Shown: one piece after another, positions 1,079-23,828 of the stretch
Position numbering within the stretch: position 1 is the stretch's first letter
Layout: every line of letters starts with the position of its first letter
Assembly (NCBI GenBank): GCA_041645145.1
Contig: JBAZQO010000001.1
Coordinates: forward strand, 2,327 to 66,326
DNA: 64,000 bases
From: Candidatus Omnitrophota bacterium
GTDB taxonomy: Bacteria > Omnitrophota > Gorgyraeia > Gygaellales > Profunditerraquicolaceae
Direction: 5' to 3'
Position numbers and translations under genes: made by a program
The notes under the pieces: generated by a model
Databases searched by the model: none
What the model was told of the DNA's origin: nothing
The model's input: only the letters and a program-made list of their open reading frames with translations

Positions 1079-1516
1079 TTATTTCTTAAGATCCAGGTGC
1101 CTTTCAATTTGCTCAAAGAAAACCCTGATCTGTTGAATATTCTGATTCATATCTCTCGAATCACAATTCATCTGATCAAAATTATCTTTTATGGCTCCGA
1201 GCTTCTGAGCTATGGACTGAAGATTTTGAATAAGAGCTTCATCCTGGGCCTCCCCTGATTCTTTAGCCTGCCTGAATGAATTCTGGATATCCGCTTTTAT
1301 ATCAAATGTCATCTGCCCGATATTAGCAAACATTTTTATTAAAGCTGCCAAGAGCAAGCTGCCCATTAAAATCAAAAAACCATAAATAAATGCATTAATA
1401 TCCTTGAATTTGAATATCATCCATAAACTTCCGGCAGCAACACCGCAAATTGCGATGAAATAAGAAAAAAACAGCAAGATTATCGTAATCGGCATCTTGT
1501 TGGCAATCTTTATCAT
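1079..1516 (-). CDS. hypothetical small membrane protein with C-terminal coiled coil
   Basis: 145 aa. Two hydrophobic helices (ITIILLFFSYFIAICGVAAGSLW; FIYGFLILMGSLLLAALI) are followed by a charged, Q-rich helical tail. It is tightly packed between rSAM and GT2 genes on the same strand. Confidence 0.35.
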   Translation of the reverse strand: MIKIANKMPITIILLFFSYFIAICGVAAGSLWMIFKFKDINAFIYGFLILMGSLLLAALIKMFANIGQMTFDIKADIQNSFRQAKESGEAQDEALIQNLQSIAQKLGAIKDNFDQMNCDSRDMNQNIQQIRVFFEQIERHLDLKK

Positions 1517-1526
1517 CTAGTCCTCC

Positions 1527-5205: not shown

Positions 5206-5222
5206 AAGATAACTTTTTAAAA

Positions 5223-6512
5223 TTATGCCGCCAGTTTATAGTTTTTTAATACTTCTTTTTTAAGTATATTCAATTTATAAACCTCTAATCTTTTCTGATT
5301 AAAATTACCCAAGAAATTGGGCTTTACGCGCTTTAACAACTCATTGATACAATAATCTATCCTGGATATTATTCGTTCACGGGCATTAGCATTATCCAAG
5401 CATCCTTCTATTCCGGTAAGAAAATGTTTCACCTGCCCTGAAATATCCATGGGAAAATATACACAATCTTGAAGGCAATGAGCTTTGCATTTATTCACAG
5501 TATCTCTAATCTTTTGTGCTTGCAGCGAAAACCAAATCTGTCTTAAATTTTCTTTTTTAAAATCGCCATAGAGCCCCTTACAACTCCATAATTTACCATC
5601 GCACGTTATAACTATCCGCTTAATCCCCTCATAACATTTAAAACGCCTCCCAGGCTTTTTGCCCCTGAAATAACCAGGGATGGACTTCAATATGGCAGGG
5701 TCTGTGTATATGAGAATGTCCTTGGTTTCTTCTTTAATGTTGACTAGCTTACATATATTTTCCTCTAAAAGTGGCATCTCTTCCACCGATGGCCATAATG
5801 AATTTTTCTTACGTTCATACATGCTAACATTGCTCATCAAAACAGGCTGAAACACAACGGTATTGCATTTTTTGCTTTTGGCAAATTCAACGATCTTCAG
5901 CATATCGTTAATATTTTTATTCATGATGGTAAAATTTATGCCGATGGACGGACTGGTTACCTTCATTTTTTCTTTGTAATAATTCAATTTATCGATTGCA
6001 TCAACGGACTTAGCGAAAGAGCCTTCACCCCTTATCGCGTCATTTACTCCGGAAATACCGTCTAATGAAATAGTAACGTGGTTTAACCCCGAACCGATTA
6101 AACTTTGCGCCGCTTCATCATTGCATAATGCTCCGTTTGTAATAATATCCACCCAGGGAATACCGCTCTCCCTGGAAAATCTTATAAGCTCCGTAAGATC
6201 TCCGCGCAGCAGCGGCTCGCCTCCAGAGAAAATAAGATGTTTCACGCCTAAATCTTTTATTTGTAATATAATTTTCTTTATCTCGTCAGTATTCAACTCA
6301 TCTTCCTGCCTACCCGGAGATTTAGGTATATCGCACATAACACAGCGTAAACAACATCTATTGGTTAACGAGAAATAAACATGTTCAGGTGGCACCAGAG
6401 GATAAGAAACTATCCGGCTGGCATAGAATCCTATCATATCCTCGACTTTTATCAGTTCTCTTTCTAAGTACTTATCCATTACTGCCCTTGCCGGTAGATA
6501 TCCCAAATACAT
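5223..6512 (-). CDS. radical SAM / SPASM-domain protein (paralog 3)
   Basis: CCLRCVMC; GGEPLLRGDLTELI. C-terminal CYEGIKRIVITCDGKLWSC...CKAHCLQDC. The true start is probably an internal Met (M12 or M26), because the first 41 nt overlap the upstream gene. Confidence 0.75.
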   Translation of the reverse strand: MYLGYLPARAVMDKYLERELIKVEDMIGFYASRIVSYPLVPPEHVYFSLTNRCCLRCVMCDIPKSPGRQEDELNTDEIKKIILQIKDLGVKHLIFSGGEPLLRGDLTELIRFSRESGIPWVDIITNGALCNDEAAQSLIGSGLNHVTISLDGISGVNDAIRGEGSFAKSVDAIDKLNYYKEKMKVTSPSIGINFTIMNKNINDMLKIVEFAKSKKCNTVVFQPVLMSNVSMYERKKNSLWPSVEEMPLLEENICKLVNIKEETKDILIYTDPAILKSIPGYFRGKKPGRRFKCYEGIKRIVITCDGKLWSCKGLYGDFKKENLRQIWFSLQAQKIRDTVNKCKAHCLQDCVYFPMDISGQVKHFLTGIEGCLDNANARERIISRIDYCINELLKRVKPNFLGNFNQKRLEVYKLNILKKEVLKNYKLAA

Positions 6513-7527
6513 TCCTTAAGCTGGAAGATGATTCCCTGGAGTAACAGGATTGTAGACATAACTTTTCGCATTTTTTTGAATGCCTCCTCAATTCATGGGC
6601 CTCTTTTGATCTCCAGGCCCCTTTTAACGACATCATGTTCAAATTTCCGCATATCCCGTGGCAGGTATAAACAAGCGGTTCGTTCTTAGAAAAACATATG
6701 AATACAGTCTTAAGCCCTCCGAAACAAACCCAATCCGGTTTCTTAAGTGTGCCCTGATAATATTTAATTAATAATTCCGGGCGTGGTTCTTTTAACACAA
6801 CAATATGTTTCCATGCGGTTTTTTCTATTTTTTCAATTTGATCTCTTAATAACGGTATCTTCTCTGCGGCCACCCAGTTTTGCGGAATCTTTCTTTCCAC
6901 GAAATTGGCATTATCGCTGATCAGCGGCTGAAAGTTAATCACATCGACGTTTAGGTCATCGGCTAATTGCGCGATATCATGAAGCTGGGAAACATTTTCA
7001 TCCATAACCGTGACAGCGATACCCAATGAGAAATTCCTGCCTGCGGCCTTCTTCTTGCCAAGCAATTTAATGCCTTCAACGGTTTTAGCGAAAGTATGCT
7101 TTCCTCTGTAATAATCATTCGTATTTTCCAGGCCATCGAGCGAGAAATGGATATGGTCTAAGTTTGATCCAGCTATCCGCTCTGACATATCAGCGTCTAT
7201 AAGCACGCCGTTAGTAGTAATAATATTTCTCAATCCCTTGGCATGAGAATAATCGCATATACTAAACAGGTCTTTCCTTAAAAAAGGCTCCCCCCCTGTT
7301 AAAAGCAGCTCTTTTACCCCATAAGAAGCGGTTTCATCAACTACCCTGTATATCTGTTCGGTAGACAATTCTTCATCCGGCGGCAACAAATCAACTATAC
7401 TGCACATGCGGCACCTTAAGTTACACCTGTAACTAAGGGAGATTTGTACCACCTCCGGATGGATTAAAGGATAATTCATCTTCCGGGATAACCAATAAAA
7501 CAGGTTATTCATCATTTCTCTCCGCAA
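6472..7527 (-). CDS. radical SAM / SPASM-domain protein (paralog 4)
   Basis: CNLRCRMC; GGEPFLRKDLFSIC. C-terminal CFGGLKTVFICF...CHGICG...CEKLCLQSC. The N-terminus (FYWLSRKMNYPLIHPEVVQISLSYRC) closely parallels paralog 5. Confidence 0.75.
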   Translation of the reverse strand: MRREMMNNLFYWLSRKMNYPLIHPEVVQISLSYRCNLRCRMCSIVDLLPPDEELSTEQIYRVVDETASYGVKELLLTGGEPFLRKDLFSICDYSHAKGLRNIITTNGVLIDADMSERIAGSNLDHIHFSLDGLENTNDYYRGKHTFAKTVEGIKLLGKKKAAGRNFSLGIAVTVMDENVSQLHDIAQLADDLNVDVINFQPLISDNANFVERKIPQNWVAAEKIPLLRDQIEKIEKTAWKHIVVLKEPRPELLIKYYQGTLKKPDWVCFGGLKTVFICFSKNEPLVYTCHGICGNLNMMSLKGAWRSKEAHELRRHSKKCEKLCLQSCYSRESSSSLRNVFGISTGKGSNG

Positions 7528-7540
7528 AAACTACCCCTAA

Positions 7541-9517
7541 CTATTTCGTAGCCCAAAGAGTAATGGCCGGGCCATGTTCATGCTTCTCTTTCCCGATTAT
7601 CTCAATTGAATTAAAGCCCGCATCTCTGATTGCTGCAAGCAAATCTTCTTCAAATAACCAAAACACCCTTTTCTCCAAACCACACACAATATCATTGATA
7701 TTCTCATCAAAATATTTTCCGCGGTAAATGCGATTATTCCACCTGGTTCCTTCAGCCGGAGCGATAGGATAACTATCATTGGCGTAATGCGACCAGACAA
7801 AAAGGCTGTTGCAGAGCTGGCCAATTCGATAAAGCAGCGCAACTGGGTTATTTAGATGATATAGAACTCCTGATGCCAGGCATAAATCAAAATGACCGGA
7901 AAAAGAGCTTAACACTTCATTCGCGTCACCAAATAAAAATTCGCATTTATCTAATTTGAACGCATTCTTAACGATCAGCGCTTTCAGAAAGTTTTCTTTT
8001 CTGCCTTCGATAGAGATAACCTTTTTAGCTCCGTTCCCCTGCAGTAGAGATGAATGCATCCCTTCCAAACAACCCATATCCAGAATAGTTAACCCTTTCA
8101 GGTTTATTCTTTTTCTTATCTCATTGATCTTTGATTCAAAAGGAACGCCTGGTTTAGGCTGTCCCGAAACAGAAATCTCTTCAAACGAAAAATTACCCAC
8201 CCAATTTTGAAAAATCCCAAACCCATATAATTGGGATATTGTTAACGACCCCCTAAAAGAGTTGAGTATATTCTCTAATTTCTTTAACGTATTTACAATA
8301 TCGCTATCCGGCTCTTCAGTCTTTGAATTAAGGACCCCTCTCATTGATTGCAAAAAAAAGTATTCTTCTTTGCGAATGGTAATTTGGGCGTCCCGAGGCA
8401 AGTTTCTTATTTCTATCTCTAATTGTTCATGAATTAAACTAATGTCGTCCGATTGTGAGCGTTCTGAACAAAATTGGGTGCAGCTTTTTTTACAATTCTT
8501 GATCATTTCCCTGATTTTACCGGTATCCTCTGCATACCATAATTGTTTCAGGCTGTCTTTTTTGATATTCCCGAATGACTGTAAGCATACAAAACTCATA
8601 TCTCCCTGCGGATTTACAAAAATCCTGTTGAATCCCGCAAAACAGGTATTCTCAAATCCCTCTCCCCGGAAATGTTTGATGGTTTTCTCCGGCATGATAT
8701 CTATATGCATGAAACCTGAAAATTGTCTCTTTTTGGCAATCAAAATATCGAAAATTTGCTGCAGCCTGGGGATATCCTTTTCTTCAATCCAGAGTTCATT
8801 ATTTTCTAAAGGTGCGGGTAAATCCCCGTTATTCACCAAGGGCTGGAAGGCTATATAACAACAACCTATTTTTCTTGCCAAATCAGCCAAGGCAGGCAGT
8901 TCCTCCATATTCTTCTTCATGATCACGCTTACCATTGCAATATCCAAAACCCTATCTTCGCTATTACGGCCGCGGCCATATTTTTTTTTATAGTAATTAA
9001 GATACTCAATGGAACGCATCGCTTTCTCAAATATTCCTTCACCCCGGAAAAAATTATGCGTTTTGGGGCTTGCCCCGTCGATAGAAAAACTTATATTCCT
9101 TAATCTTGACCTTACTATTTTTTCAGCAGTCTCTTCGTTGATAAAACCACCATTAGTATTAATTGTAGTGACGATCCCAGGGCGAGCAGCGTAATCGATT
9201 AACTCAAATATGTCTTTTCGCAGGAGCGCTTCGCCTCCGGTAAAATAAATCGTCTTTATACCCATAGATAGGGCTTCATCAATAAACCTTTTAATGTCTT
9301 CTGCACCTGCTTCTTCCTGAAACCGCTGCTTCCATACATTACACATCTTACACTGAAGCTGACAACGGGACGTAACCATAAGCTGCAGCATATCAGGCTC
9401 AACCATTGCTTTATTTAATAAGCGGGAAAAATTAAACAAATAATCCCTTTTGTGCTTATTAAAAATTTCTTCCATCCTATCCACGACCATGATACTCCCC
9501 CATTCTGGAAATAACAA
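7541..9517 (-). CDS. fusion protein: N-terminal radical SAM/SPASM domain + C-terminal class I SAM-dependent methyltransferase domain
   Basis: N-terminal half: CQLQCKMC, GGEALLRKDIFELI, CFAGFNRIFVNPQGDMSFVC...CKKSCTQFC. C-terminal ~200 aa: LTILDMGCLEGMHSSLL resembles the Rossmann-fold methyltransferase motif I (hhDhGCGxG-like), followed by hydrophobic and acidic motifs. Confidence 0.65.
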   Translation of the reverse strand: MLFPEWGSIMVVDRMEEIFNKHKRDYLFNFSRLLNKAMVEPDMLQLMVTSRCQLQCKMCNVWKQRFQEEAGAEDIKRFIDEALSMGIKTIYFTGGEALLRKDIFELIDYAARPGIVTTINTNGGFINEETAEKIVRSRLRNISFSIDGASPKTHNFFRGEGIFEKAMRSIEYLNYYKKKYGRGRNSEDRVLDIAMVSVIMKKNMEELPALADLARKIGCCYIAFQPLVNNGDLPAPLENNELWIEEKDIPRLQQIFDILIAKKRQFSGFMHIDIMPEKTIKHFRGEGFENTCFAGFNRIFVNPQGDMSFVCLQSFGNIKKDSLKQLWYAEDTGKIREMIKNCKKSCTQFCSERSQSDDISLIHEQLEIEIRNLPRDAQITIRKEEYFFLQSMRGVLNSKTEEPDSDIVNTLKKLENILNSFRGSLTISQLYGFGIFQNWVGNFSFEEISVSGQPKPGVPFESKINEIRKRINLKGLTILDMGCLEGMHSSLLQGNGAKKVISIEGRKENFLKALIVKNAFKLDKCEFLFGDANEVLSSFSGHFDLCLASGVLYHLNNPVALLYRIGQLCNSLFVWSHYANDSYPIAPAEGTRWNNRIYRGKYFDENINDIVCGLEKRVFWLFEEDLLAAIRDAGFNSIEIIGKEKHEHGPAITLWATK

Positions 9518-9547
9518 TATTTCACATTAGCTTATAGGAAAAGAATA

Positions 9548-10912
9548 TTAAGAAATACCGCCCTTATAAACTCCTAAGATTTTAGCCAACCCGAATAACA
9601 TTCCTCTTCTTATTTCCCGGATCCTTGGGCTGTTCTTCCCCCTGATATACCATTCTGAGTTATTATTATAGCGGATATTCAAAGAACCCTGCTCTCTCCA
9701 TAACCGCGATTTATGCGGGATATAACAGCTGCTGACACTTACGAACTCATCAATATATTCCCGGTTATTAAATAAAAAGATCATAGTCTCTATAACGTCG
9801 CTCCATCTTTCCGCAGGATAGCCTACCATCCATAATGTATTAACCCTGATTCCGGAATCGTGAGTTCTCCGTAAAGCTTGAGAAATATGTTTTTTTAGCG
9901 GCTTGCCCATATGCGCCAGGACTCTGGCGGCCCCGCTTTCAATGCCATATGTAAAATAAATCCCGCCTGCTTTCTTTATTTTGCACAGAAATTCCTGCGA
10001 CATTTCTATCCGCGCCCGGGCCATACCTCCCCATTCAAAATTATTCTTACTGGCGATTATTTTATCCGTTAATTGCCCCAATTTCTCTAAATCTCCGTTA
10101 ATCATTAAATCGTTGCACTTAAAACGCCTGCGGCCAAAGAGCTCGCCATGCTTTATCATTTCTTCAAGGATGTTATCGGCGCTCCTCATGCGATACCTTC
10201 CCCACATAGGCGCGTCCGTACAGAATGCGCAGCTATAATTACATCCCCGGCTGAAAATAATCGGGATTTCTAATTTATTAGTATAGCGCTCGAGATCAAA
10301 TAGTTTTAGTGCAGGAGACAGGATGCTATCAACATCCAAAGGATTCGCATCCCAACCATTATCTTTGAAACCGGTGCCCGTATTAACCAATGTGCCTTCT
10401 AAGGCTAAATCCATTATGGATTCGCCACGCTCAATTATTTTCGCTATTCTACTAATGATCTTCTCGCCTTCCCCCCGGACATAAACATCAACATTGTTAT
10501 TCAACTCTCCGGATTCTATAATCTCCGTGCACAAGGGACCGCCAAATACAATACAGGCATCCTTCGCTTTCTTCTTTAATACATCCGCCAATAAATTAGC
10601 CAATATTCTGGAATGGCTGTTAACGCTTAAACCTATAATTTTTGGATCACACTCCAAAACGGTTTCTGTCCATTTTTCTACCAAATCCGAAACATTAAAA
10701 TTTCTATTTATTTTTTCTAAAGAAGCCCAGTGATCGGAATTTTCCCAGTCCCACAAAAATTGTTTATCTTTACTCTCTACGTATAGTTGAGAATTGAAAC
10801 AAAAAACAGAAACTTTATATCCGTCATTCATTAACTGGCTGGCTATATATGCTATGCCCAAAGGTGGCATATCAACTCCGTAGAGAGGAGGAAAGACCAA
10901 GGCTACATTCAT
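9548..10912 (-). CDS. B12-binding (class B) radical SAM protein
   Basis: The N-terminus MNVALVFPPLYGVDMPPLGIAYIASQL...GYKVSVF is typical of a cobalamin-binding domain. Further on is IIFSRGCNYSCAFCTD (CxxxCxxC). Its stop overlaps the next gene's start (ATGA). Confidence 0.75.
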   Translation of the reverse strand: MNVALVFPPLYGVDMPPLGIAYIASQLMNDGYKVSVFCFNSQLYVESKDKQFLWDWENSDHWASLEKINRNFNVSDLVEKWTETVLECDPKIIGLSVNSHSRILANLLADVLKKKAKDACIVFGGPLCTEIIESGELNNNVDVYVRGEGEKIISRIAKIIERGESIMDLALEGTLVNTGTGFKDNGWDANPLDVDSILSPALKLFDLERYTNKLEIPIIFSRGCNYSCAFCTDAPMWGRYRMRSADNILEEMIKHGELFGRRRFKCNDLMINGDLEKLGQLTDKIIASKNNFEWGGMARARIEMSQEFLCKIKKAGGIYFTYGIESGAARVLAHMGKPLKKHISQALRRTHDSGIRVNTLWMVGYPAERWSDVIETMIFLFNNREYIDEFVSVSSCYIPHKSRLWREQGSLNIRYNNNSEWYIRGKNSPRIREIRRGMLFGLAKILGVYKGGIS

Positions 10913-11970
10913 TTTTGCTTTCTAAAGTTATTTTTTAAGATATCCCTTAAGCTGGCTGATTCCTGCCGGGCGTGACAATCCTGAAGGCAGTAATTACGGC
11001 ATTTTTTGATTTTAACCCTTCTTTTCTTAGCCTTAAGAGAAAACCAATTATTTTTTACCGAAGGCTCTCTTCTTATATTCCCGATTTCTTCGCCGCACAT
11101 TTGGATTGAGCCGCCGGGGACTACTACAAACCTGCGATAACCTGCAAAACAAACCCAATCACCCTCACACAGATCCCTCCTGAAATATTTCTTTATTAAA
11201 TAAAAACTGGGATAGTTCAGGCCGTATCCTTTCTGTTGAAGAAGATCGATTTTATCTATCATCTCATCCAGCTTTTTTAAACGGTCACCAGTAATCCACA
11301 AATTTCCTTCACTGCTCCCAGAGTCCTGCTTATACAACTTAACATTGTTCAGGACAACAGAAGTTATATACAAGGCGTCAACCGACAAACCTTTGGCAAG
11401 ATGGAAATATTCCTCTAATTCATCAAGGTTATAATTAGATAGGGTCAATATCAATACCTTGATTAATTTCTTTTCCTCCGGGGAATTATTTAAATGCCTT
11501 ATTCCCTGCATTATTTTATCGTAAGCGCCGGGTTGGGCTCTAATTTTATCATGCGTTTTGCCTCTGGCGCCATCAAGGGATATCGTAATTACATCAAGCT
11601 TAGACTGAATTAACCTTCTTGCCACCTCTTCAGTTATCAGCGTGCCATTCGTGGTTAGAATAACGGTTAAGCCCAGCGATTTTGCATATTCTATAACATC
11701 AAAACATATCTCGCACAAAAGAGGCTCTCCTCCGCATAGATTGACTTCCTTAACCCCCCATTCGCGGCACTGATTCAGAATATCCTTAATTTCTTTAAGG
11801 GTTAATTCCTCGCTTATGTTTGCAGCCTTCCATACGCTACACATCTCGCATCTAAGATTGCATCTACTGGTAAGGGATATCTGCAGGGTATCGGGTGGAA
11901 CAAGAGGGAAATTAATCTTTCGCGACAGCCAAAATCCGAAATCCCTTTTTATTTTATCAATTTTATTCAT
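10909..11970 (-). CDS. radical SAM / SPASM-domain protein (paralog 5)
   Basis: CNLRCEMC; CGGEPLLCEICFDVI. C-terminal CFAGYRRFVVVPGGSIQMCGEEIGNI...CRNYCLQDC. Confidence 0.75.
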   Translation of the reverse strand: MNKIDKIKRDFGFWLSRKINFPLVPPDTLQISLTSRCNLRCEMCSVWKAANISEELTLKEIKDILNQCREWGVKEVNLCGGEPLLCEICFDVIEYAKSLGLTVILTTNGTLITEEVARRLIQSKLDVITISLDGARGKTHDKIRAQPGAYDKIMQGIRHLNNSPEEKKLIKVLILTLSNYNLDELEEYFHLAKGLSVDALYITSVVLNNVKLYKQDSGSSEGNLWITGDRLKKLDEMIDKIDLLQQKGYGLNYPSFYLIKKYFRRDLCEGDWVCFAGYRRFVVVPGGSIQMCGEEIGNIRREPSVKNNWFSLKAKKRRVKIKKCRNYCLQDCHARQESASLRDILKNNFRKQK

Positions 11971-11991
11971 AATCCAGCGGTAATGTTATTT

Positions 11992-13914
11992 TCAATCGCA
12001 AAAACAAGGCAAAAGACAGGGATTTTTGCACTCCCTGACCCTTTTTCTTGCCTGCACACTCTTTTCAGATTCGAAAATCTTTCTTAAGGAGTCTTTCCGG
12101 ATATTACCATAACTTTCAAAACAAGTAGCTACATCGCCGTTGTTAGCAACCAGAACCGTCTTAGCTGCATAAAGGCACTTTACATCGCCTTGGGATAAAT
12201 ACCCCCGGAAATATTTTTTTACAAGCCTGAGGTTATTCTCTGAATTACGCACAAGGAGATAATTATCTTTTTTAAATTCAAGCAATTTATCTATTACCGC
12301 ATCTAATACTGCCAGCCTCTCCTGAGGTATCCAGTATTTAGTTCCCCCCCTCCTCTCTTTCATTATTAGATTATTGGGAAGCAGGGGTTGAAACTGGATA
12401 GAATTAACATTGAGTGATTTTAAAAAAACAGCTAAGTCCAAAAGCTCTTCCAGATTCTCATTAAGAATTATAGAGATAGTGTTAAAATTTATACCTCGAC
12501 CCCTTTTCTTTAATCGGGAAAGTTTTTCCAGGGCAGCGGATGTCTTCTGGAAAGCTCCTTCGACCCCACGTATTTCATCATGAATTCCAGGGTTCAACGC
12601 GTCAAGTGAAATACTCAAAGAGAGGCTCCCCGAATTAAAATATGGCAGTAACTTATTAATAAAATATTCATTCAATATAATGCCATTAGTCAGCACGCCT
12701 ATATGGTAATTTTTTTCTTTTACAAAATCTAATATTTCAAAAATGTCCTCTCTTATAAAGGGTTCTCCGCCGGATAAAACAAATTCCCTGACTCCCCAGC
12801 CAATAGCTTCATTTATAAGATTTTTTATTTCATCCGAGGTGTACTCCCCGATTGGCTTATCTTTTCTTATTTCACAGATATTACATTTAAGATTACACCT
12901 GTGCGTAATATCCAAAATAATAACTTCCGGCTTGGGAGGATTGCTGACGGTGTTATTTTGGCCATTATTTAAGTCATTCTCCGGTATTTTTGCTGCTCTT
13001 ATATGCTCTACCGTATTACCGATTAAATAATTCACTTTATGCAACGCAAAATAAAGGAAAATTTGGAACTTTTCATATAAAGTAATGTGGGTAAGCGACC
13101 GGATTAAACGCCTGCCCAAAAGATAAGAAAAGCGCGGGATCTTGAAAAAATTTATGATTGACCCAAAAATAAAATAAGTGTTATTTTGAGTCTTTATTTC
13201 CTTTAATAGGGGGTGGTCTTTATGCACATGTTGCACCAAGTAATTCCCCCGGCCGTACATATACGCCTGTTTTAAAAATGAAATGATGTTTGTATGACAA
13301 TCGTGGAATATTTTTATATCTTGCTTATAGCTAAGCCTGCCGCCATTTTTAAAAATCCTCCAGAATAAATCTAGATCTTCACCTGCGGGAAAAGGGAACA
13401 GTTCATTGAAACCATTGACAAGATAATCTCGCTTAAAAGACACATTGCAAGTCGGGAAAAATATAGTTTCGGGCTTTCCCTTTATCTCGGTTGCTATTGC
13501 TCCGTCACTTAAAAATTGGCTAACCTTCGCCTTAATATTATGGCTGGCGACCTCAGTAGTACCCCCAATTGCTGCGATATGTTTCTCTAATCTATGCGCC
13601 TGAACCATCTGCCTGACCCAATCTTTATTCAAGATACAATCGCTATCCGTAAAACCGATTATTTCTGCAGATGCATATTTTATGCCTAAATTTCGCGCAA
13701 CAGCAGGGCCTTTGTGCTGTTGAATAAAATACCTCAAGTTAGGATTTATTTTAGAAAGCGCCTCAAGCATATCTTTAGTTCCATCATTAGAACCATCATC
13801 TATTACAATTATCTCAAAGGCATCTTTTGGATAAATCTGCGCGAATAAGGAATCGAGGCATTGTCTGAGTTTGAGCTTTCGATTATAAGTAGGAACTACT
13901 ATAGTAAAATCCAT
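11992..13914 (-). CDS. fusion protein: N-terminal GT2 glycosyltransferase + C-terminal radical SAM/SPASM domain
   Basis: N-terminus MDFTIVVPTYNRKLKLRQCLDSLFAQ...IIVIDDGSNDGT (GT2). C-terminal half: ILDITHRCNLKCNICEIR (CxxxCxxC), GGEPFIREDIFEIL, CLYAAKTVLVANNGDVATCFESYGNI...CKNPCLLPCFCD. Confidence 0.7.
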   Translation of the reverse strand: MDFTIVVPTYNRKLKLRQCLDSLFAQIYPKDAFEIIVIDDGSNDGTKDMLEALSKINPNLRYFIQQHKGPAVARNLGIKYASAEIIGFTDSDCILNKDWVRQMVQAHRLEKHIAAIGGTTEVASHNIKAKVSQFLSDGAIATEIKGKPETIFFPTCNVSFKRDYLVNGFNELFPFPAGEDLDLFWRIFKNGGRLSYKQDIKIFHDCHTNIISFLKQAYMYGRGNYLVQHVHKDHPLLKEIKTQNNTYFIFGSIINFFKIPRFSYLLGRRLIRSLTHITLYEKFQIFLYFALHKVNYLIGNTVEHIRAAKIPENDLNNGQNNTVSNPPKPEVIILDITHRCNLKCNICEIRKDKPIGEYTSDEIKNLINEAIGWGVREFVLSGGEPFIREDIFEILDFVKEKNYHIGVLTNGIILNEYFINKLLPYFNSGSLSLSISLDALNPGIHDEIRGVEGAFQKTSAALEKLSRLKKRGRGINFNTISIILNENLEELLDLAVFLKSLNVNSIQFQPLLPNNLIMKERRGGTKYWIPQERLAVLDAVIDKLLEFKKDNYLLVRNSENNLRLVKKYFRGYLSQGDVKCLYAAKTVLVANNGDVATCFESYGNIRKDSLRKIFESEKSVQARKRVRECKNPCLLPCFCD

Positions 13915-16629
13915 TTATTTATCTTGTATAGTTAGAAGACCGGAAAAATAATGATATTTGCCGGGGGAAAAATTTGTTTGCGCGGAAGAAGAGTATTGTA
14001 AAATCCTGCCGCGATGATATCTATCGGAATTTATTATTTTAAGATGCCATTGTGGATTTGATTTTTTGAGAGACAAAGAAACCCGCGGTAAATTATATAT
14101 AGGATTCTCTCTTAAGCTAATAATTCGATCGTCTTTTTTACCACTCCATAAACAATCCCAGTTATCATCAACATCATCTGCGAATTCGGGAAAGAAACCC
14201 TCTTCCTTGTCAACCAGCCATTGAGAAAATCTCTCAGAAAACATAATATTGGACTGAAGACAATCTACCTCAATTTCTTTTTCTACTTCCAGCCTGACCA
14301 TCCATTCAAATAACCCATCATCTTTAATCGCTATCTCCCATTCCTGAGACAAGGGCAGCTGGAGCCATTTGCCAACAGCTTTAATTTGCTGGCTATCTTT
14401 ATAGATAATTTTCCAAGAAGCAGAAGAAAAAGAGTCATGCCAACGCCCCTTTGAACGCATTGAGGTATAGAGGGCGATATTCTTGGTAAGCTCCTCACCG
14501 TTTTTATAAAACCTCCCGCTTCCTTTATTAAATACAAATCTGATATTTTTATCTTCGATGATATTATTAAGCTTATCAATGTCCGTTGTTTTGTTTCTAT
14601 CCAAAACAAACCGCGTCCTAAAGCATTCATATTTACCCGGGGAAAACATAACGTTTATTTCCGGCTCAACCTTTTCCAAATGTAAGAGCCTTGCTTTACT
14701 ATAATGATCGGAGTTAAAAACTTTTATAAAATTGCCTAATTTTTCGGAGAAAAACAAAGAGACCTGGGGGAGACTTCCCGTAGGATCCCTTAATCCCACT
14801 TCTCCCGTAGAAACACACCTTTGCAATAAATCTACCTCCGTATCATTAAATGTGTCGCTGAATTTCTCAGAAACAAACTTACTAAAGAAAAGCTTAAAAT
14901 CTGCGGGGAAAAAACACCTTAGGCGCTGATGTTCAATAGCGATATCCCGTTTGGCTTCAATATCAACATCCCAGGTAAAAGAAAGACCATTGCATATATT
15001 GATGCGCCATGTTTGAGAAATTCCAAGATCATCCCAGTTACCTCGGGCAATCAATATATTATCTGACTCTTTTTCTAGCGTCCAGCGAGCCAAATCTGAA
15101 GTAAACCATCTCTGCTTTGTAAAAAATGCGGAATACATATGGCCGGCCTTAGTTAAAGGGATGTTATCAAAGAATACACTTAGCCTGCCATTATCAAATA
15201 TCAATTTTAACTTTTTGTTTGAAATAATAAACTCGTTTTGTATCTTAGAGACATAATCATGAATATCGGCAATATTAACCTTTATCGCGCCTGAAAAACA
15301 GATAAACCTACTGGGCTGGTTAATTGGGTTGCTGGAGATAGGTATCGTTTTATACTGCAGTATACGTCCGGGATTCAAATAATCAGAATTTAATACGGTC
15401 CCCTGACCAAGATATCTTAAGCGGGATTGTTCAAAAAACAAAGCTGGAAGCTTACCGGAAGCAGATTCCTGCGGATATACGCCAATGCAGACACTGGGTC
15501 CATTCTTGAAAAATATGGATTTCCAGTTCTTATCCTCTTCTTTTATAACAGGAAATTCTCCTTGTTCCGAGTCAACAAACCACTGCTTATAGCCGTCAAC
15601 GAGCATAACGTTAGCGTATATCTGGTGTAATTGTATATCTGTCTCCGTTTCAATTTCTATGTCCCACTTAATCTCATAATTATCAGATACCTCTATCCTC
15701 CAAATCTGAGACAGTGCAAGATGATAAAACTTACCCGTTGCTACCAACTTACCATTTGATTCCTCAACATCCCATTCTGCCTGAGTAGAACTATACCATA
15801 CGCCGGATATTCCAAATGTCGTATAAACTCCGGGAAAAGACGTGATTAATTTACCTTCCCAATTCAACAATAGGCGGCCGTTATTGAATACAAGGCTAAG
15901 CTGTTTTCTCGCAACAATGGCTATTCCCTTCGGGCTGCCGACTGCCTGCGAATAAAAAGACGCTACCTTGGCCGTTTCTCCATCTTTAATCATCATTCCA
16001 TTTTTCAAAAATATCGTTCTTTTGCACAGTTTCTGCAGCATTGCCATATCGTGGGTAACGATGATAACTGTTTTGCCGCTTTCTCCCACTTTAAATATTT
16101 CTTTAATACATTTTTTTTGGAAATACTCATCTCCCACGGCAAGCGTATCATCTATCAGGAAAATTTCCGGCTCCATATGAATGGCTATGGCAAAAGCCAA
16201 CCGCACAAACATGCCTTGCGAATAACACTTTACCGGGGCGTCTATAAACTTGCCGATCTCGGCAAAGTCGATAATCTGCTGATACCTTTTATTAATTTCA
16301 TCGCGGCTTAAGCCAAATAATTCAGACTGTAAAAAAATATTCTCTCTTCCCGTAAGCTCCGCTTGAAAGCCCGCGCCCAATTCCAGGAGCCCCGATACGC
16401 TGCCGGAGATATTTGCCTGGCCGCGGTCAGGATTTAACATTCCGGCAATTAATTTTAAAATGGTCGACTTACCCGAACCATTCTCGCCGATAATCCCCAG
16501 CGACTCACCCCTCTCCATAGAAAAACTGATTCCCCGCAAGGCCCAGAAATTTTGCCATGAGGCCTTACCCTCAATAATAAACTTGATGCGATACATCTCC
16601 CATACATCATTAAATTTAATTATAGGCAT
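13915..16629 (-). CDS. wzt: Wzt/KpsT-type ABC transporter ATP-binding protein with ~670-aa C-terminal extension of three tandem repeat modules
   Basis: N-terminal ~235 aa: Walker A GENGSGKST, signature-like YSQGM, Walker B IFLIDD, H-loop VTHD. This is the polysaccharide-exporter ATPase family. The remaining ~670 aa form three ~220-aa repeats, each with an L.L.FNNGRL...W..L..SQ.WRI...W.V.IE...DI core and an NSD(Y/H/R)...RILQY...SPGKY(E/H)(C/Y)F tail. Confidence 0.75.
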   Translation of the reverse strand: MPIIKFNDVWEMYRIKFIIEGKASWQNFWALRGISFSMERGESLGIIGENGSGKSTILKLIAGMLNPDRGQANISGSVSGLLELGAGFQAELTGRENIFLQSELFGLSRDEINKRYQQIIDFAEIGKFIDAPVKCYSQGMFVRLAFAIAIHMEPEIFLIDDTLAVGDEYFQKKCIKEIFKVGESGKTVIIVTHDMAMLQKLCKRTIFLKNGMMIKDGETAKVASFYSQAVGSPKGIAIVARKQLSLVFNNGRLLLNWEGKLITSFPGVYTTFGISGVWYSSTQAEWDVEESNGKLVATGKFYHLALSQIWRIEVSDNYEIKWDIEIETETDIQLHQIYANVMLVDGYKQWFVDSEQGEFPVIKEEDKNWKSIFFKNGPSVCIGVYPQESASGKLPALFFEQSRLRYLGQGTVLNSDYLNPGRILQYKTIPISSNPINQPSRFICFSGAIKVNIADIHDYVSKIQNEFIISNKKLKLIFDNGRLSVFFDNIPLTKAGHMYSAFFTKQRWFTSDLARWTLEKESDNILIARGNWDDLGISQTWRINICNGLSFTWDVDIEAKRDIAIEHQRLRCFFPADFKLFFSKFVSEKFSDTFNDTEVDLLQRCVSTGEVGLRDPTGSLPQVSLFFSEKLGNFIKVFNSDHYSKARLLHLEKVEPEINVMFSPGKYECFRTRFVLDRNKTTDIDKLNNIIEDKNIRFVFNKGSGRFYKNGEELTKNIALYTSMRSKGRWHDSFSSASWKIIYKDSQQIKAVGKWLQLPLSQEWEIAIKDDGLFEWMVRLEVEKEIEVDCLQSNIMFSERFSQWLVDKEEGFFPEFADDVDDNWDCLWSGKKDDRIISLRENPIYNLPRVSLSLKKSNPQWHLKIINSDRYHRGRILQYSSSAQTNFSPGKYHYFSGLLTIQDK

Positions 16630-16630
16630 A

Positions 16631-17422
16631 TTAAATACGTTTTAAGGCGCTGGATTCAAGACAAACCGACACCGACAGCCCGATAAATAAACTGAAAAAA
16701 GCCCAACCGATAACCCCCAAGAACGTCCCGACATCCGGTATCCTGCCGTAAAGAATTATCTCCCGGTAACAGATAATAAACGGAGACATCGGATTAAAAT
16801 TAAAAGCCCACCGGAATTCAGGCGGAATCATCTCTATAGAGTAAAAAACAGGGGTGACCCAAAACCAAAACATAAGCAGGATTCCAAGCAAATGTTCCAG
16901 GTCACGGAAAAGAATGTTAATTACGCTAAATAACAAACTAATCCCGCAGGTAAAAAAATAAGTCAACAAAAATATAACCGGCAACAAAGGGGTCAGGGGG
17001 ATAATCTTGGGATTGTGGAAAGAAAATACCGGATAGACAATGCACCAACTCATAAGAAAACTCATAAAATAAGACAAGACAGAACTCAAGGGCAGTATCT
17101 CTTTCGGTAAACTGAATTGATGGAGGACGCTTTTCTGGACTAAAAGAGAGGGAGTGGCTTCGGATAGAGCCCCGGAAAAAAACATCCACGGTAAAATACC
17201 CGAAAGCACAAACAAAGCGAAATCTTTTACTCCGGTTTTAAAAACAGCGGTAAATACAAAGGTTATTACCAGCATCATGAGCAAAGGGTTTATTATCACC
17301 CAGAAAAAACCTAAAACAGAACCGGCGTATTTAGCCTTAAATTGCTTTAATGACATGCTCCATAAAGAGCGCCGGTAAGAATATATTTTCTGAATTCTTT
17401 TTATAATTAATTTTACGGGCAT
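16631..17422 (-). CDS. wzm: ABC-2 type polysaccharide exporter permease (Wzm/KpsM/TagG family)
   Basis: 263 aa with six predicted TM helices. It lies immediately downstream of the ABC ATPase, 1 nt apart, which is the typical Wzm-Wzt pair. Confidence 0.75.
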   Translation of the reverse strand: MPVKLIIKRIQKIYSYRRSLWSMSLKQFKAKYAGSVLGFFWVIINPLLMMLVITFVFTAVFKTGVKDFALFVLSGILPWMFFSGALSEATPSLLVQKSVLHQFSLPKEILPLSSVLSYFMSFLMSWCIVYPVFSFHNPKIIPLTPLLPVIFLLTYFFTCGISLLFSVINILFRDLEHLLGILLMFWFWVTPVFYSIEMIPPEFRWAFNFNPMSPFIICYREIILYGRIPDVGTFLGVIGWAFFSLFIGLSVSVCLESSALKRI

Positions 17423-17430
17423 TCCGCTCC

Positions 17431-18741
17431 CTACAGCTTAGGGCCTTTGTTCAACCTGGATATTTCATTGTCTATAAAACTTTTGCCTGAGGAAAGCTGC
17501 TTTGCTTTTTCTAAACTATTTAATGCTAAATCATGTTTATCCATTTTTTCGTATATCTTAGATATAGTAAGACGCGCCTGCCTGTAGCGGGGATACGTAG
17601 AAACCAAACCTTCTGCTATTTCCCGCGCCCTGCTTGATTCGCCGGCGCCATTTAACGCGTAGGCATAATTATTCAATAGAGCAGGATCTGCAGGTGAGTT
17701 TTTGAGTTTTTCCCGGCAATACTTTGCTTCTTGCCGGTATTCCGCAAGCGCCTGTTCACCTCTGCCCAAGTTAACATAAATATCAGCCAAGTCATTATGT
17801 AAATTGGGATAATCATTTTTTAACACCCTCACCTTATTATACTCCAATATTGCCTGATTAAACATTTTGTCATCGCGATATACACTCCCCAGGCTATAAA
17901 TATAATCCACATTATCCGGAGCCAGGCTGACTGCCTTCTGTAAATAAGGCAGCGCTTCTCTGTAACGTTCAAGGCGCATCAATAATAATCCCAGCTCATT
18001 GTAACTGGATGCGTCGTCGCTATCCAAAGATATTGTCTTTTGCGCGTAGAAAACTGCCTTCTCAATATCTCTTTTTCTAAAATAGATGTCAGAAAGCAAT
18101 CTGTAAGCATGGCGAAACTGCGGATCTATTGTGATAGATTTATTCAGGTTTATTTCGGCATTATTGTAATCCTGCCCGGAGAGATAATAATAGCCCAAGG
18201 TATAATACGCCAAGACGTTCCCCGGGCAGAAGAGAAGAACATTCTCCAGTATAGAGATCGCCTCTTTATTCTTCTGCGCCAGGTGCAACCCTGCGCTCGT
18301 GCCTAAGGCGCCGGCAAAATAGGTATCGCAGCAGTTTTTGAATGACTCCTTTATTCTTTCATCTGACGGATTTTCCTTCTGCCCCTGGAGTAAAATCCTC
18401 AGCGCTTCCGCGTAATTTCCCTCCTCATGATAGATGCGGGCTAAAGAATCATACGCCCTGGCGCAAAGAGGATTAATACCCAGCGCTTTTTTGTATTCCC
18501 GGGCTGAAGTCTGGTAATCCTTACTTTCCAAATAAAGATCTGCCAACCCTAAATGCGCCATCCAGGCTTTGGGATTAATCCTCAGAGAGTTTCTGTAAGC
18601 GGCCTCTGCTTTTTTGTAATCCCGGTGTTCAAAATAATAATTTCCCTGGTTACAAAAGAATGCCCCCAGCTTACCCCAGGCCGAGTATGCGAAGATCGCT
18701 AACAAAACCAAAAACAGTGAATATTCAATTGCCTTCTTCAT
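17431..18741 (-). CDS. TPR-repeat protein with N-terminal membrane anchor
   Basis: N-terminal hydrophobic helix (YSLFLVLLAIFAYSAWG) is followed by more than eight ~34-aa repeats with the TPR consensus (W/Y..LG..Y....Y..A...Y..AL...P). Confidence 0.7.
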   Translation of the reverse strand: MKKAIEYSLFLVLLAIFAYSAWGKLGAFFCNQGNYYFEHRDYKKAEAAYRNSLRINPKAWMAHLGLADLYLESKDYQTSAREYKKALGINPLCARAYDSLARIYHEEGNYAEALRILLQGQKENPSDERIKESFKNCCDTYFAGALGTSAGLHLAQKNKEAISILENVLLFCPGNVLAYYTLGYYYLSGQDYNNAEINLNKSITIDPQFRHAYRLLSDIYFRKRDIEKAVFYAQKTISLDSDDASSYNELGLLLMRLERYREALPYLQKAVSLAPDNVDYIYSLGSVYRDDKMFNQAILEYNKVRVLKNDYPNLHNDLADIYVNLGRGEQALAEYRQEAKYCREKLKNSPADPALLNNYAYALNGAGESSRAREIAEGLVSTYPRYRQARLTISKIYEKMDKHDLALNSLEKAKQLSSGKSFIDNEISRLNKGPKL

Positions 18742-20039
18742 AATTTGATTTCCCCGGCTGCCCTCCTGCCGTCAAGTATCGCATCCTCCATAGACATATA
18801 CTCCCAGCTTCCGTAACGGCCGCAGGCAATTATATTGTTGCGCGACAAGAATTCTTTTATTCCCGCGGTTGCCCGGGAATAATATTGATCATAAATGGGA
18901 TACCCGTATTTTATATCGTTTGTATCCAGAACCGCTATCCTGTTTTTTTTACTTAAGATCCCGGTTCTATGGAGGTCATTTAAAACCCGTTTAACAATAT
19001 TTTCCCTGTTGATAGGTTTGCTTTTTGAATATGAAACCTCCGCATATAAAGAGCTTGTACCGCCAGGAGCATTATTATGAGAAAAATTATGGAAGAATCC
19101 AACCCTGAAAAAAATGGTTTCTTTGCGCGGGAAGTACACCCAGTGCTTATTATCCTGGCAGCTTCCTTCTACGCCAAGATTCAAATTAAAAATCGAATTC
19201 CAGCGCAGCTTTTTAAGGCTGTTAATAATTTTATCAGGCAGCGGCTTAATTATCTTTATCAATTCGGGTAGAGGTATCGTCAAAATCAGGGTATCAAATC
19301 TTTCCGAACCAGCGCCTTTGATGGTTATCTCCTTTTTCTTAAGATCAATCCCGCTAACGCAACAATTCTTGGAGACATAGCCTATTTGTTTTTCAAATGC
19401 ACCAGCAAGCTGAGCGATCCCCCCTTTTCCGGGATACCAAAAAGTGGCGTTATAACCAAAACGGTCTCTGTTTTCCGCAAAGAACCCGTTAACCATATCG
19501 GCTAGGCTGGGCTGGGGAATAAATCTTTCTGACCACGGACAAGCCATCCGGCTTAAAGGAACTGTCCAGAATTTACTGTTATAAGGGATCATAAAATGCC
19601 TGGCTATGCCTTTGCCAAAGGTAGCATTTATCCATTTTAAGAAATCTGCCTGGCTATTACCTCTCCTGGGGAACTTGCCGGCCCAGATAAATTCCCATAA
19701 GCATTCCCAGGCTATTGGCCCAGGTAAGGCGCAGAGATTAGCCTGAAAGGGGTAGCGGCTAAAAATCCCGAAATTATTGACCCAGGCGCTCCTTTCATGG
19801 CGCGCCAGATTACCTTTCAATAGCCTTCTGGCCAATTGCAGCGTATAATTGTTTCTAAAATGCAGGAGGTGGCCGTCATAATCAAAAATAAAACCCTTGA
19901 TCTGCTTGGAACGGCACAGTCCGCCGACGGTGTCTTCTCTTTCAAATACGGCAGATTCTATCCCTCTTTTCTTAAGATGCCAGGCAGCGCTTAGGCCTGC
20001 CAGGCCCGCTCCTAAAATAATAATCTTCTTCTTAGCCAT
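18738..20039 (-). CDS. FAD-dependent oxidoreductase, UDP-galactopyranose mutase (Glf)-like
   Basis: N-terminal dinucleotide-binding motif IIILGAGLAGLSAAWHL...VFERED.VGG. GHLLHF... and the C-terminal ...ACGRYGSWEYMSMEDAI resemble UGM (GxHIFH...GRLAEYKYYDMHQ). Confidence 0.5.
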   Translation of the reverse strand: MAKKKIIILGAGLAGLSAAWHLKKRGIESAVFEREDTVGGLCRSKQIKGFIFDYDGHLLHFRNNYTLQLARRLLKGNLARHERSAWVNNFGIFSRYPFQANLCALPGPIAWECLWEFIWAGKFPRRGNSQADFLKWINATFGKGIARHFMIPYNSKFWTVPLSRMACPWSERFIPQPSLADMVNGFFAENRDRFGYNATFWYPGKGGIAQLAGAFEKQIGYVSKNCCVSGIDLKKKEITIKGAGSERFDTLILTIPLPELIKIIKPLPDKIINSLKKLRWNSIFNLNLGVEGSCQDNKHWVYFPRKETIFFRVGFFHNFSHNNAPGGTSSLYAEVSYSKSKPINRENIVKRVLNDLHRTGILSKKNRIAVLDTNDIKYGYPIYDQYYSRATAGIKEFLSRNNIIACGRYGSWEYMSMEDAILDGRRAAGEIKL

Positions 20040-22177: not shown

Positions 22178-22201
22178 TTTATTATTATATTACCTTGGGA
22201 G

Positions 22202-22825: not shown

Positions 22826-22828
22826 TTT

Positions 22829-23800: not shown

Positions 23801-23828
23801 TTTGTCTCCTTGTGATTTTTAAGAATTA

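Follow-up and report, generated by a model that had tools for sequence, protein, structure and literature searches.

A GT2-radical SAM fusion protein kept across Omnitrophota is encoded in a conserved Wzm/Wzt-type cassette

Among radical SAM enzymes, those with sugar substrates are known almost only from antibiotic and lipid head-group pathways, always as separate proteins, and no bacterial O-antigen- or capsule-type pathway has to our knowledge been shown to depend on them. Galf-containing glycans exported by Wzm/Wzt include mycobacterial galactan (WecA, GlfT1/GlfT2, Glf, Wzm-Wzt), Klebsiella galactan and the product of the Kingella pam locus, and we are aware of no radical SAM enzymes in these systems. 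Multidomain terminators and modifiers of ABC-dependent O-antigens include the kinase-methyltransferase WbdD, and the C-terminal sugar-binding domain of Wzt gates export. WbbB is described as a multidomain O-antigen terminator or modifier of an ABC-dependent pathway that joins a Kdo-transferase to glycosyltransferases (GTs). In hopanoid synthesis, the GT2 enzyme HpnI puts GlcNAc on a membrane-bound acceptor, and HpnJ is proposed to ring-contract the attached sugar (PMC13459092; PMC9092360).

The window analysed here, a whole stretch of 64,000 nucleotides from a Candidatus Omnitrophota bacterium, carries on its minus strand one open reading frame (ORF) that joins a GT2 glycosyltransferase to a radical SAM core, as a sequence-only reading of this DNA had proposed (Table 1). 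ORF analysis of the window returned 640 aa from an ATG start with zero internal stops, spanning the motifs VVPTYNR, IIVIDDGSNDGT, CNLKCNIC (C340/C344/C347) and GGEPFIRED and ending in a Cys-rich C-terminus. The ATG abuts the stop codon of the upstream wzt (TAAATG), and the N-terminus lines up with those of the homologues in the alignment. Domain profile searches placed all three parts above the Pfam thresholds: Glycos_transf_2 (PF00535; residues 4-165, E 6.3e-34, 117.8 bits vs cutoff 23.3), Radical_SAM (residues 336-497, E 1.8e-22, 80.7 bits) and, as a marginal pass, SPASM (PF13186; residues 580-630, E 2.7e-5, 24.8 bits vs gathering cutoff 21.5). The AF2 model of the protein has a mean pLDDT of 86.1 and a pTM of 0.61. 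No NCBIfam equivalog for either half of the fusion or for its neighbours came up to cutoff, and no name is therefore transferable to them.

Table 1. Predicted features of the fusion protein and its operon, with positions in the window
Feature	Coordinates	Strand	Evidence or remarks
GT4-family glycosyltransferase	21008..22177	(-)	Pfam
WecA/MraY-family polyprenyl-phosphate sugar-1-phosphate transferase, initiating	20032..21015	(-)	Pfam PF00953, 107.8 bits
UDP-galactopyranose mutase homologue (eukaryotic type)	18738..20039	(-)	PDB 4dsg match; Pfam only 'Amino_oxidase'
TPR-repeat protein	17431..18741	(-)	Pfam; synteny
Wzm-type ABC-2 permease	16631..17422	(-)	Pfam PF01061
Wzt-type ABC ATPase, 904 aa	13915..16629	(-)	NBD residues 1-235 plus 669-aa extension
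GT2-radical SAM/SPASM-type fusion gene	11992..13914	(-)	ORF, Pfam, >110 full-length homologues, AF2; coordinates include stop codon
GT2 (GT-A fold) module, residues 1-307	12994..13914	(-)	
Variable interdomain linker, residues ~308-328	12931..12993	(-)	Alignment A1, pLDDT, split point in L058/L063
Radical SAM core, residues ~329-575; CX3CX2C at C340/C344/C347; SGGE 381-384	12190..12930	(-)	
C-terminal SPASM/twitch-type auxiliary Fe-S domain, residues ~576-640	11995..12189	(-)	Pfam SPASM; invariant columns
Radical SAM paralogue, 353 aa	10909..11970	(-)	31% identity to fused radical SAM module, full length
B12-binding radical SAM enzyme, 454 aa	9548..10912	(-)	Pfam, NCBIfam
Radical SAM/SPASM-type plus class I SAM methyltransferase, 658 aa	7541..9517	(-)	Pfam, paralogy; second fusion of operon
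Four radical SAM paralogues	2837..7527 (6472-7527, 5223-6512, 4057-5205, 2837-4069)	(-)	Pfam
Terminal GT2 glycosyltransferase, 437 aa	1527..2840	(-)	Pfam; 28% identity to fused GT2 module

In two related genomes (L058 and L063) the halves are adjacent separate genes that break exactly at the linker, which speaks for a sequencing or assembly frameshift having merged two genes here. Against this, an identical protein (P0001) is listed in NCBI, JGI, Logan and ENA; database searching yielded over 110 homologues that align along the whole protein (identities of 49-95%, 100% coverage, many studies and assemblers); and the same fusion is a single ORF in 49 GTDB species-level loci. The linker, moreover, is in frame and variable in length, as a true linker would be: its ~20 residues are the sole poorly conserved stretch of alignment A1, in which every catalytic motif is invariant, and pLDDT falls below 50 at residues 317-326 of the AF2 model. 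With one continuous frame in all these homologues and loci, an artefact is therefore ruled out with near certainty, and the earlier claim that neither stop nor frameshift separates the domains stands. The fusion is kept across the phylum Omnitrophota, whose members are thought to be host-dependent nanobacteria. Alternative domain orders also exist (B12-rSAM-GT2-rSAM, GT2-rSAM-rSAM and rSAM...GT2, where rSAM is radical SAM); orthology of the third module of the 963-976-aa variants with the 353-aa paralogue of the window was not established, this module being simply a further paralogue. Loci labelled as DPANN archaea encode a fusion 41-44% identical to ours. These versions come without Wzm and Wzt; a helicase on one such contig contains the Pfam 'archaeal helicase domain 4', and the DPANN-labelled loci yielded no tRNAs. 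Occurrence of the fusion in DPANN archaea as well is suggestive only, with binning or labelling errors possible. A literature search found no characterised GT-radical SAM fusion, in agreement with the initial impression; what is new here is the joining of known enzyme kinds, GT2 and radical SAM, in a combination for which the literature offered no characterised counterpart. Xanthomonas papers that name radical SAM together with wzt were set aside, the radical SAM gene there being unconnected to the O-antigen locus.

The N-terminal half is an intact GT-A/GT2 module of the inverting, metal-dependent GT2 family with a Rossmann-like GT-A fold, and is predicted to be a glycosyltransferase. The nucleotide/metal-binding Asp residues (DDGS Asp, DxD) and the catalytic acidic residue (GED/ED) are present, and D40, D90-x-D92 and G178-E179-D180 are invariant in an alignment of 32 homologues. 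Three amphipathic helices (245-307) close the module, which has no predicted TM segment. Its structural neighbours include PcManGT, DPMS, GtrB and ArnC, and its best NCBIfam matches were EpsD (135 vs cutoff 370) and MftF (134.8 vs cutoff 280). The radical SAM module is likewise intact: it combines the profile match with a GGE SAM-binding motif and a partial TIM-barrel fold, C340-X3-C344-X2-C347 is invariant across the aligned homologues, and a SAM-cleaving enzyme is predicted. Of the auxiliary-cluster region first read into the Cys-rich C-terminus, the SPASM-type domain held up, whereas the Cys residues proved too few for two fully ligated clusters. The canonical SPASM motif has seven Cys (CX9-15GX4C...CX2CX5CX3C...C), and two auxiliary [4Fe-4S] clusters need 7-8. 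This seven-Cys motif was not found in the C-terminus of the fusion, where only five Cys are invariant (C580-X17-C598, containing GX4C, then C629-X3-C633-X3-C637); C639 is variable, and the protein ends at D640 without a distal Cys. The domain is therefore classed as SPASM/twitch-type rather than canonical two-cluster, and five Cys would be enough for one fully Cys-ligated, twitch-like auxiliary cluster, not for two. The same pattern is repeated in five of the six paralogues of the locus, rSAM_2837 having CX2CX3C. A weak sequence match to 7tol, the structure of a tetraether synthase, was also obtained.

The fusion gene is a member of a conserved Omnitrophota cassette of GT4, WecA-like transferase, UDP-galactopyranose mutase (UGM) homologue, Wzm and a Wzt of ~905 aa. 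Wzt lies directly 5′ of the fusion in 23 of 42 loci; in 30 of 42 no other recognised gene comes between the two, 6 of these 30 having an unrecognised insert of ~2 kb and 1 an insert of ~6 kb. Wzm was present in 28 of the 30 loci with enough upstream sequence, with Wzm/Wzt synteny in 26-28/30, and the mutase homologue, WecA-like transferase and GT4 recurred in 23/30, 21/30 and 20/30, respectively; the TPR-repeat protein occupies the equivalent position in only some orthologous loci. Genes of O-antigen-ligase and heptosyltransferase type were seen near related loci. As in a Wzm/Wzt pathway, an ABC-2 permease and a Wzt/TagH-type ATPase share the operon with glycosyltransferases and an initiating transferase. 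The ATPase matched PF00005, and its best models were TagH (191 and 163 bits) and Wzt/RfbE (156), all under the equivalog cutoffs. The WecA-like transferase scored 86 bits against TIGR02380 wecA (cutoff 326) and is assigned at the family level only. The mutase homologue matched PDB 4dsg over residues 4-415 (E 1.5e-43), with the motifs YPFQ-N, PYN-K-W-VP, NATF-P-GG and GR(F/Y)G-W-Y aligned. Neither Wzt_C, the known type of Wzt carbohydrate-binding domain, nor any other Pfam family was detected in the Wzt extension at E <= 0.01. The extension comprises three homologous ~220-aa all-beta modules with a galactose-mutarotase-like beta-sandwich, predicted to be of sugar-binding type; profile-profile comparison revealed three clear repeats, which BLAST self-comparison missed because of its low sensitivity.

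This gene content bears on whether the enzymes could instead serve a lipid, with the GT2 glycosylating a membrane lipid, the radical SAM enzymes remodelling its head group (by a Cds-/HpnJ-like ring contraction) or its chains, and the ABC-2 transporter flipping or exporting it. The nearest mechanistic precedents (HpnI/HpnJ and Cds) do work on lipids, the structural neighbours of the GT2 module include GT2s with lipid-phosphate acceptors, and the weak match to 7tol, the 'ladderane'-type clusters and Mss homologues that genome miners report in Omnitrophota and the transporterless DPANN-labelled versions point the same way. However, by combining a WecA-type transferase with a UGM homologue and with a Wzt that bears three carbohydrate-binding-type modules, the core shows the signature of a polyprenyl-linked glycan pathway, and the ligase- and heptosyltransferase-type genes close by in related loci also argue against lipid remodelling, which we consider unlikely.

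Downstream of the fusion, 2-9 further radical SAM modules follow per locus, drawn in varying sets from at least seven orthogroups. The four paralogues that precede the terminal GT2 in the window are 29-33% identical to the fused module, and orthologues of each occur elsewhere among the loci. Many orthologous loci likewise end in a GT2, of 423-435 aa. The B12-binding radical SAM class, with one member here, includes radical methyltransferases. All 15 genes of the operon are separated by gaps of 30 nt or less, with several overlaps, and the sole ORF downstream of it encodes 145 aa with a hydrophobic N-terminal stretch. Arrays of this kind could also mature a RiPP or cofactor, SPASM-type radical SAM enzymes modifying a ribosomal peptide that the GT2 glycosylates and the ABC transporter exports; precedents for the GT2 role are SunS in glycocins and MftF, with MftC, in mycofactocin. 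Yet no precursor peptide gene was found in or beside the cluster, whose short gaps and overlapping genes leave no place for one. Nor is there space for an RRE domain in the paralogues or the fusion, CX3CX2C starting after 15-53 residues in every standalone paralogue and straight after the linker in the fusion, and no Pfam match to an RRE/PqqD-like domain or separate RRE protein was obtained in the fusion or its neighbours. RiPP maturase equivalogs were not reached (StsB 82.8/625, AlbA 67.8/850 and PqqE 63.3/381 bits/cutoff). Scores for mycofactocin enzymes were also far under their cutoffs: besides MftF, MftC was absent among the 25 best matches of the fusion and gave 87.3 and 84.7 vs 265 for two standalone paralogues. 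The transporter is of Wzm/Wzt type, not a peptidase-containing or lantibiotic-type exporter, and the cassette core has UGM and WecA homologues. Since neither a precursor peptide nor an RRE would fit, a RiPP product is very unlikely. The earlier proposal that the radical SAM enzymes of the locus work on glycosyl substrates is supported.

On balance, we lean toward the fusion being a bifunctional tailoring enzyme of a Wzm/Wzt surface-glycan pathway, which would add a sugar to a lipid-linked glycan and subject it to radical modification before export. The GT4 and GT2 modules would lengthen the lipid-linked glycan, for which the mutase homologue would probably provide a furanose donor (UDP-Galf, for example), and the amphipathic helices would keep the GT2 module on the membrane. 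The tethered radical SAM module would then cleave SAM reductively on its CX3CX2C cluster, and the resulting 5′-deoxyadenosyl radical could abstract H from the newly installed sugar or its neighbour, the single auxiliary cluster taking care of the redox side. Sequence cannot choose among the possible outcomes, which are oxidation to a keto sugar, epimerisation, deoxygenation, decarboxylation and ring contraction. The B12-radical SAM enzyme, the second fusion (radical SAM-methyltransferase) and the remaining radical SAM enzymes might edit the glycan further before the three mutarotase-like Wzt modules recognise its finished form for export. The same locus and exported product would result if the order of events were reversed, the radical SAM module first modifying a nucleotide sugar (e.g., UDP-hexose or UDP-furanose) and handing the unusual donor to the fused GT2. 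GT2 precedes radical SAM in the main family, but the order is reversed or interleaved elsewhere and so gives no direction; six standalone paralogues are easier to picture on a common polymer than on six donors. Neither point is decisive, and we rate donor editing as possible but fairly improbable.

Taken together with its setting, the fusion suggests that Omnitrophota edit surface sugars by uncharacterised radical reactions: a covalent GT-radical SAM pair is kept across an uncultivated phylum, in an export cassette with as many as nine further radical SAM modules next to it. If enzyme and glycan are indeed linked in this way, one expressible 640-aa protein offers an entry point to new carbohydrate radical chemistry, unusual sugars are predicted on the Omnitrophota surface, and glycan loci may be misread wherever genome miners assign rSAM-SPASM arrays to RiPP or 'ladderane' clusters. 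Even a simple oxidation or epimerisation would provide a useful annotation for several hundred proteins named just 'glycosyltransferase'. Tentatively, a wider scheme can be entertained in which radical glycan editing is combinatorial and phylum-wide, a conserved core building the lipid-linked glycan, which would be edited during or after assembly by B12-radical SAM and radical SAM-methyltransferase enzymes and by a set of ancient radical SAM orthogroups, at least seven in number. Were this so, C-H functionalisation, epimerisation, deoxygenation, C-methylation and carbocycle formation could give anaerobic, genome-reduced cells glycan diversity with no need for correspondingly many nucleotide-sugar pathways. 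The fusion would be the obligate entry step, its installed sugar being radically converted into the structure that Wzt reads; it would be the first GT-radical SAM bifunctional enzyme, and the scheme a new way of diversifying bacterial polysaccharides.

Among described systems, mycofactocin resembles the locus in placing a GT2 (MftF) and a SPASM radical SAM enzyme (MftC) in one pathway; it makes a redox cofactor, whereas the present locus serves glycan export, has no MftA/MftB equivalent or room for a peptide gene and matches MftF under its cutoff of 280. BlsE (cytosylglucuronate decarboxylase) and DesII are sugar-modifying radical SAM enzymes at only 16-17% identity; unlike the fusion, they are standalone enzymes of antibiotic pathways, act on nucleoside- or nucleotide-sugar substrates and have no GT domain, and the NCBIfam BlsE model is absent among the 25 best matches of the fusion, none of which reaches cutoff. 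Closer in order of events are Cds (Sulfolobus) and PtmC, radical SAM enzymes inferred to modify a hexose once it is attached to a lipid or aglycone; compared by description only, they differ in belonging to archaeal tetraether-lipid or antibiotic pathways, and the available portions of the texts on them report no GT fusion. HpnI/HpnK/HpnJ share with the fusion the sequence of glycosyl transfer and then radical editing at the membrane, but are encoded by separate genes and act on a hopanoid rather than on a WecA-primed, Wzm/Wzt-exported glycan; HpnJ is of the B12-binding class, not SPASM/twitch, and its NCBIfam model gave the B12-radical SAM enzyme of the locus 56.5 bits (cutoff 577.6). In contrast to the Galf-glycan Wzm/Wzt systems, the mutase here is of eukaryotic type, the triple mutarotase-like extension of Wzt is unique, and the cassette comes with 3-10 radical SAM modules. 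Finally, WbdD and WbbB, like the fusion, have a modifying activity fused or tethered to glycan assembly, and the fusion gene adjoins a Wzt with sugar-binding-type modules; these are three galactose-mutarotase-like units instead of Wzt_C, and phosphoryl or methyl transfer there is matched here by putative radical chemistry.

The fusion was recovered as one uninterrupted 640-aa polypeptide encoded on the minus strand; the sequence-only reading, which named no strand, had joined a GT2 glycosyltransferase and a radical SAM (rSAM) enzyme on the basis of quoted motifs, all of which were found. Pfam placed the three domains expected, i.e., Glycos_transf_2 (residues 4-165, E 6.3e-34), Radical_SAM (residues 336-497, E 1.8e-22), and SPASM (residues 580-630, 24.8 bits; cutoff, 21.5). 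No NCBIfam equivalog reached its cutoff on either half, the top models below cutoff being EpsD and MftF for the N-terminal half (∼135 bits) and AhbD, TIGR04053, and NirJ-type models for the C-terminal half (82-93 bits). Five C-terminal cysteines were invariant in an alignment of 32 homologues, as were GT2 residues (D40, D90-x-D92, and G178-E179-D180) and rSAM residues (C340, C344, C347, and S381-G-G-E384); residues ∼305-328 formed the sole poorly conserved, length-variable stretch. AlphaFold2 modelled both halves confidently (mean pLDDT 86.1) and left linker residues 317-326 disordered, at a pTM of 0.61 that does not fix interdomain packing.

Among 5.8 billion clustered proteins searched, one (P0001) was identical to the fusion; it is encoded on a 67-kb contig that bears the name Candidatus Omnitrophota. 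A further >110 proteins of 620-657 aa combine GT2 and Radical_SAM at 49-95% identity and 100% query coverage. Scanning one genome per GTDB species yielded 71 loci, 49 of them with a full-length fused ORF (41-75% identity) and almost all of these labelled Omnitrophota, to which the family is essentially confined. The absence of a frameshift between the halves, as originally read, is thus upheld by the full-length homologues and the fused species-level loci. An assembly frameshift as the origin of the fusion is excluded by both, together with the invariant residues and the linker-only variation. Contigs with a Nanoarchaeota or Woesearchaeota label carry fusions of 41-44% identity, in another gene context without Wzm, Wzt, or the homologue of UDP-galactopyranose mutase; one such locus, L055 (Nanoarchaeota label, 42% identity), carries GDSL hydrolases and lacks Wzm/Wzt. 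There are hints of transfer of the fusion between ultra-small lineages. A GT2-MurB fusion (FAD_binding_4 and MurB_C; 2331..4031, minus strand) is also encoded in L055; its neighbours are a MurA-family gene and a helicase that contains the Pfam 'archaeal helicase domain 4'.

The fusion belongs to a run of 15 minus-strand genes, from 22177 to 1527, which overlap or are separated by gaps of ≤30 nt.

Genes of the operon that contains the fusion, in order along the minus strand
Gene	Product	Coordinates	Strand	Remarks
1	GT4		-	
2	WecA/MraY-family transferase		-	
3	Flavoprotein (mutase homologue)	18738..20039	-	
4	TPR protein		-	
5	Wzm permease		-	
6	Wzt ATPase	13915..16629	-	904 aa
7	GT2-rSAM fusion	11992..13914	-	ATG start
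8	Radical SAM		-	
9	B12-radical SAM		-	
10	Radical SAM-methyltransferase fusion	7541..9517	-	second operon fusion; rSAM/SPASM-type plus class I SAM-dependent methyltransferase, 658 aa
11-14	Four more radical SAM genes		-	
15	GT2		-	

The Wzt stop codon abuts the start of the fusion (TAAATG). The C-terminal 669 aa of Wzt form an extension of three mutually homologous beta-sandwich modules, each ∼220 aa long and galactose-mutarotase-like. This extension has no match in Pfam and represents a solution different from the known Wzt_C carbohydrate-binding domain; its homologues bear Omnitrophota names only. The flavoprotein is labelled merely 'Amino_oxidase' by Pfam, and NCBIfam offered only 'hypothetical protein' models below cutoff. 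Over residues 4-415, it matches eukaryotic-type UDP-galactopyranose mutases (E 1.5e-43; E ∼1e-43 for those of Trypanosoma cruzi and Aspergillus fumigatus) with the motifs YPFQ-N, PYN-K-W-VP, NATF-P-GG, and GR(F/Y)G-W-Y aligned, and is clearly a homologue of this type, which is unusual for a bacterium. GC content is 0.37-0.41 in the glycan locus (∼1-18 kb) versus mostly 0.42-0.47 in the remaining window; lower GC is common in surface-polysaccharide loci.

Across the window (1..64000), the minus strand carries nearly every long ORF, and GC skew is negative in every 2-kb bin except 56001-58000. Other minus-strand products include an RNase_T (DEDD) exonuclease of 273 aa (27589..28410) that ends in a WYL domain (residues 206-272) and a 644-aa protein with weak N-terminal PilZ and GH76-like matches (25578..27512), which may be c-di-GMP responsive and glycan related. 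Giant proteins are a reported tendency of Omnitrophota, which the 2545-aa (49216..56853) and 1251-aa (59660..63415) minus-strand ORFs fit.

The same cassette core appeared in four homologue neighbourhoods, retrieved through exact protein matches, and in a systematic phmmer annotation covering 75 loci. For the 30 loci with ≥8 kb upstream, the counts were 28 for Wzm, 26 for Wzt, 23 for the mutase homologue, 21 for a WecA-like gene, and 20 for GT4. Wzt was the nearest recognised upstream gene in 30/42 loci, abutting the fusion directly in 23, and 2 to 9 further rSAM modules (median, 5) lay downstream. A glycolipid or lipid substrate for the fusion is weakened by this core of WecA, mutase homologue, and Wzt reader. 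Likewise, the reading of the rSAM array as a peptide (RiPP) maturation system is weakened because the operon leaves no space for a precursor gene or RRE domain and scores fall far under the cutoffs of named maturase models. Related loci also contain a Wzy_C (O-antigen-ligase-type) gene, a GT9 heptosyltransferase, and GDSL/SGNH acylhydrolases. Several loci have an additional gene between Wzt and the fusion, which in L004 encodes a 677-aa protein matching Glyco_hydro_44 (7990..10023); the gap at this place is ∼2 kb in L041, L043-L045, L047, and L065.

Of the seven standalone rSAM proteins encoded downstream, six are 29-33% identical to the fused rSAM module over the full length of that module. 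Five of these six share the module's five-Cys signature, the exception being rSAM_2837 (2837-4069, minus strand), whose last motif is CX2CX3C. As judged by sequence comparison, the paralogues did not arise by recent tandem duplication: separate orthologues of each exist in other genomes (median identity, 47%; median margin over the next paralogue, 131 bits). The 49 genuine fused modules found elsewhere are all orthologous to the window's module (median identity, 50%; margin, 150 bits); three further matches of the same size class are second modules of rSAM-rSAM proteins in the split loci. ORFs of 589-680 aa containing rSAM, similar in size to the methyltransferase fusion, recur in L031, L034, L036, and L058.

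Two loci, L058 and L063, encode GT2 (311 and 315 aa) and rSAM (330 and 346 aa) as two ORFs that overlap in different frames, occupy the exact position of the fusion, and break within the variable linker; the rSAM protein of each locus is clearly orthologous to the fused module (47% and 46% identity). L072 has a standalone GT2, 37% identical to fusion residues 1-306, flanked by the mutase homologue and by B12-rSAM and rSAM genes. Other arrangements are GT2-rSAM-rSAM (963-976 aa), B12-rSAM-GT2-rSAM (1161-1170 aa; 1170 aa in L016), a different GT2-rSAM-rSAM protein (P0142), the reverse order rSAM...GT2 (P0150), a second, different GT2-rSAM-SPASM fusion in L003 (20045..22687, 880 aa), and an rSAM-rSAM fusion in L001 (15110..17470, 786 aa), besides distant GT2-rSAM families at 27-30% identity. 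Since the domains were fused repeatedly and in different orders, there is strong comparative evidence that both activities act on the same pathway intermediate.

Public annotations of the family are generic ('glycosyltransferase' and 'radical SAM/GT2'). Full-text literature searches found no characterised GT-radical SAM fusion, in agreement with the initial reading, nor any account of radical SAM arrays within ABC-dependent glycan loci. In a recent preprint on Omnitrophota genomes, both domains figure only as Pfam modules that co-occur in giant proteins. A Cariaco Basin study describes RiPP and 'ladderane' clusters of Omnitrophota in which radical SAM and glycosyltransferase genes serve as tailoring genes; loci similar to this one may therefore be mislabelled.

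Given its observed architecture, conservation, and genomic context, the fusion is best supported as a predicted bifunctional tailoring glycosyltransferase, for which we infer acceptor, donor, reaction order, and chemical outcome. The GT2 module would transfer a sugar, possibly a furanose from the mutase homologue, to a glycan carried on polyprenyl diphosphate, on the cytoplasmic side of the membrane; the tethered rSAM module would abstract an H atom from the newly added sugar in a redox-type edit, and Wzm/Wzt would then export the edited glycan. Modification of the nucleotide sugar by the rSAM module before transfer is inseparable from this order with present data. Transfer followed by radical remodelling of the attached sugar has proposed precedents in the literature, namely HpnI/HpnK/HpnJ, calditol synthase, and PtmC (PMC13459092; PMC9092360). 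The fusion offers a specific, testable way into carbohydrate radical chemistry that may be new: pathway type and domains are known, and what is new is their uncharacterised, conserved combination.
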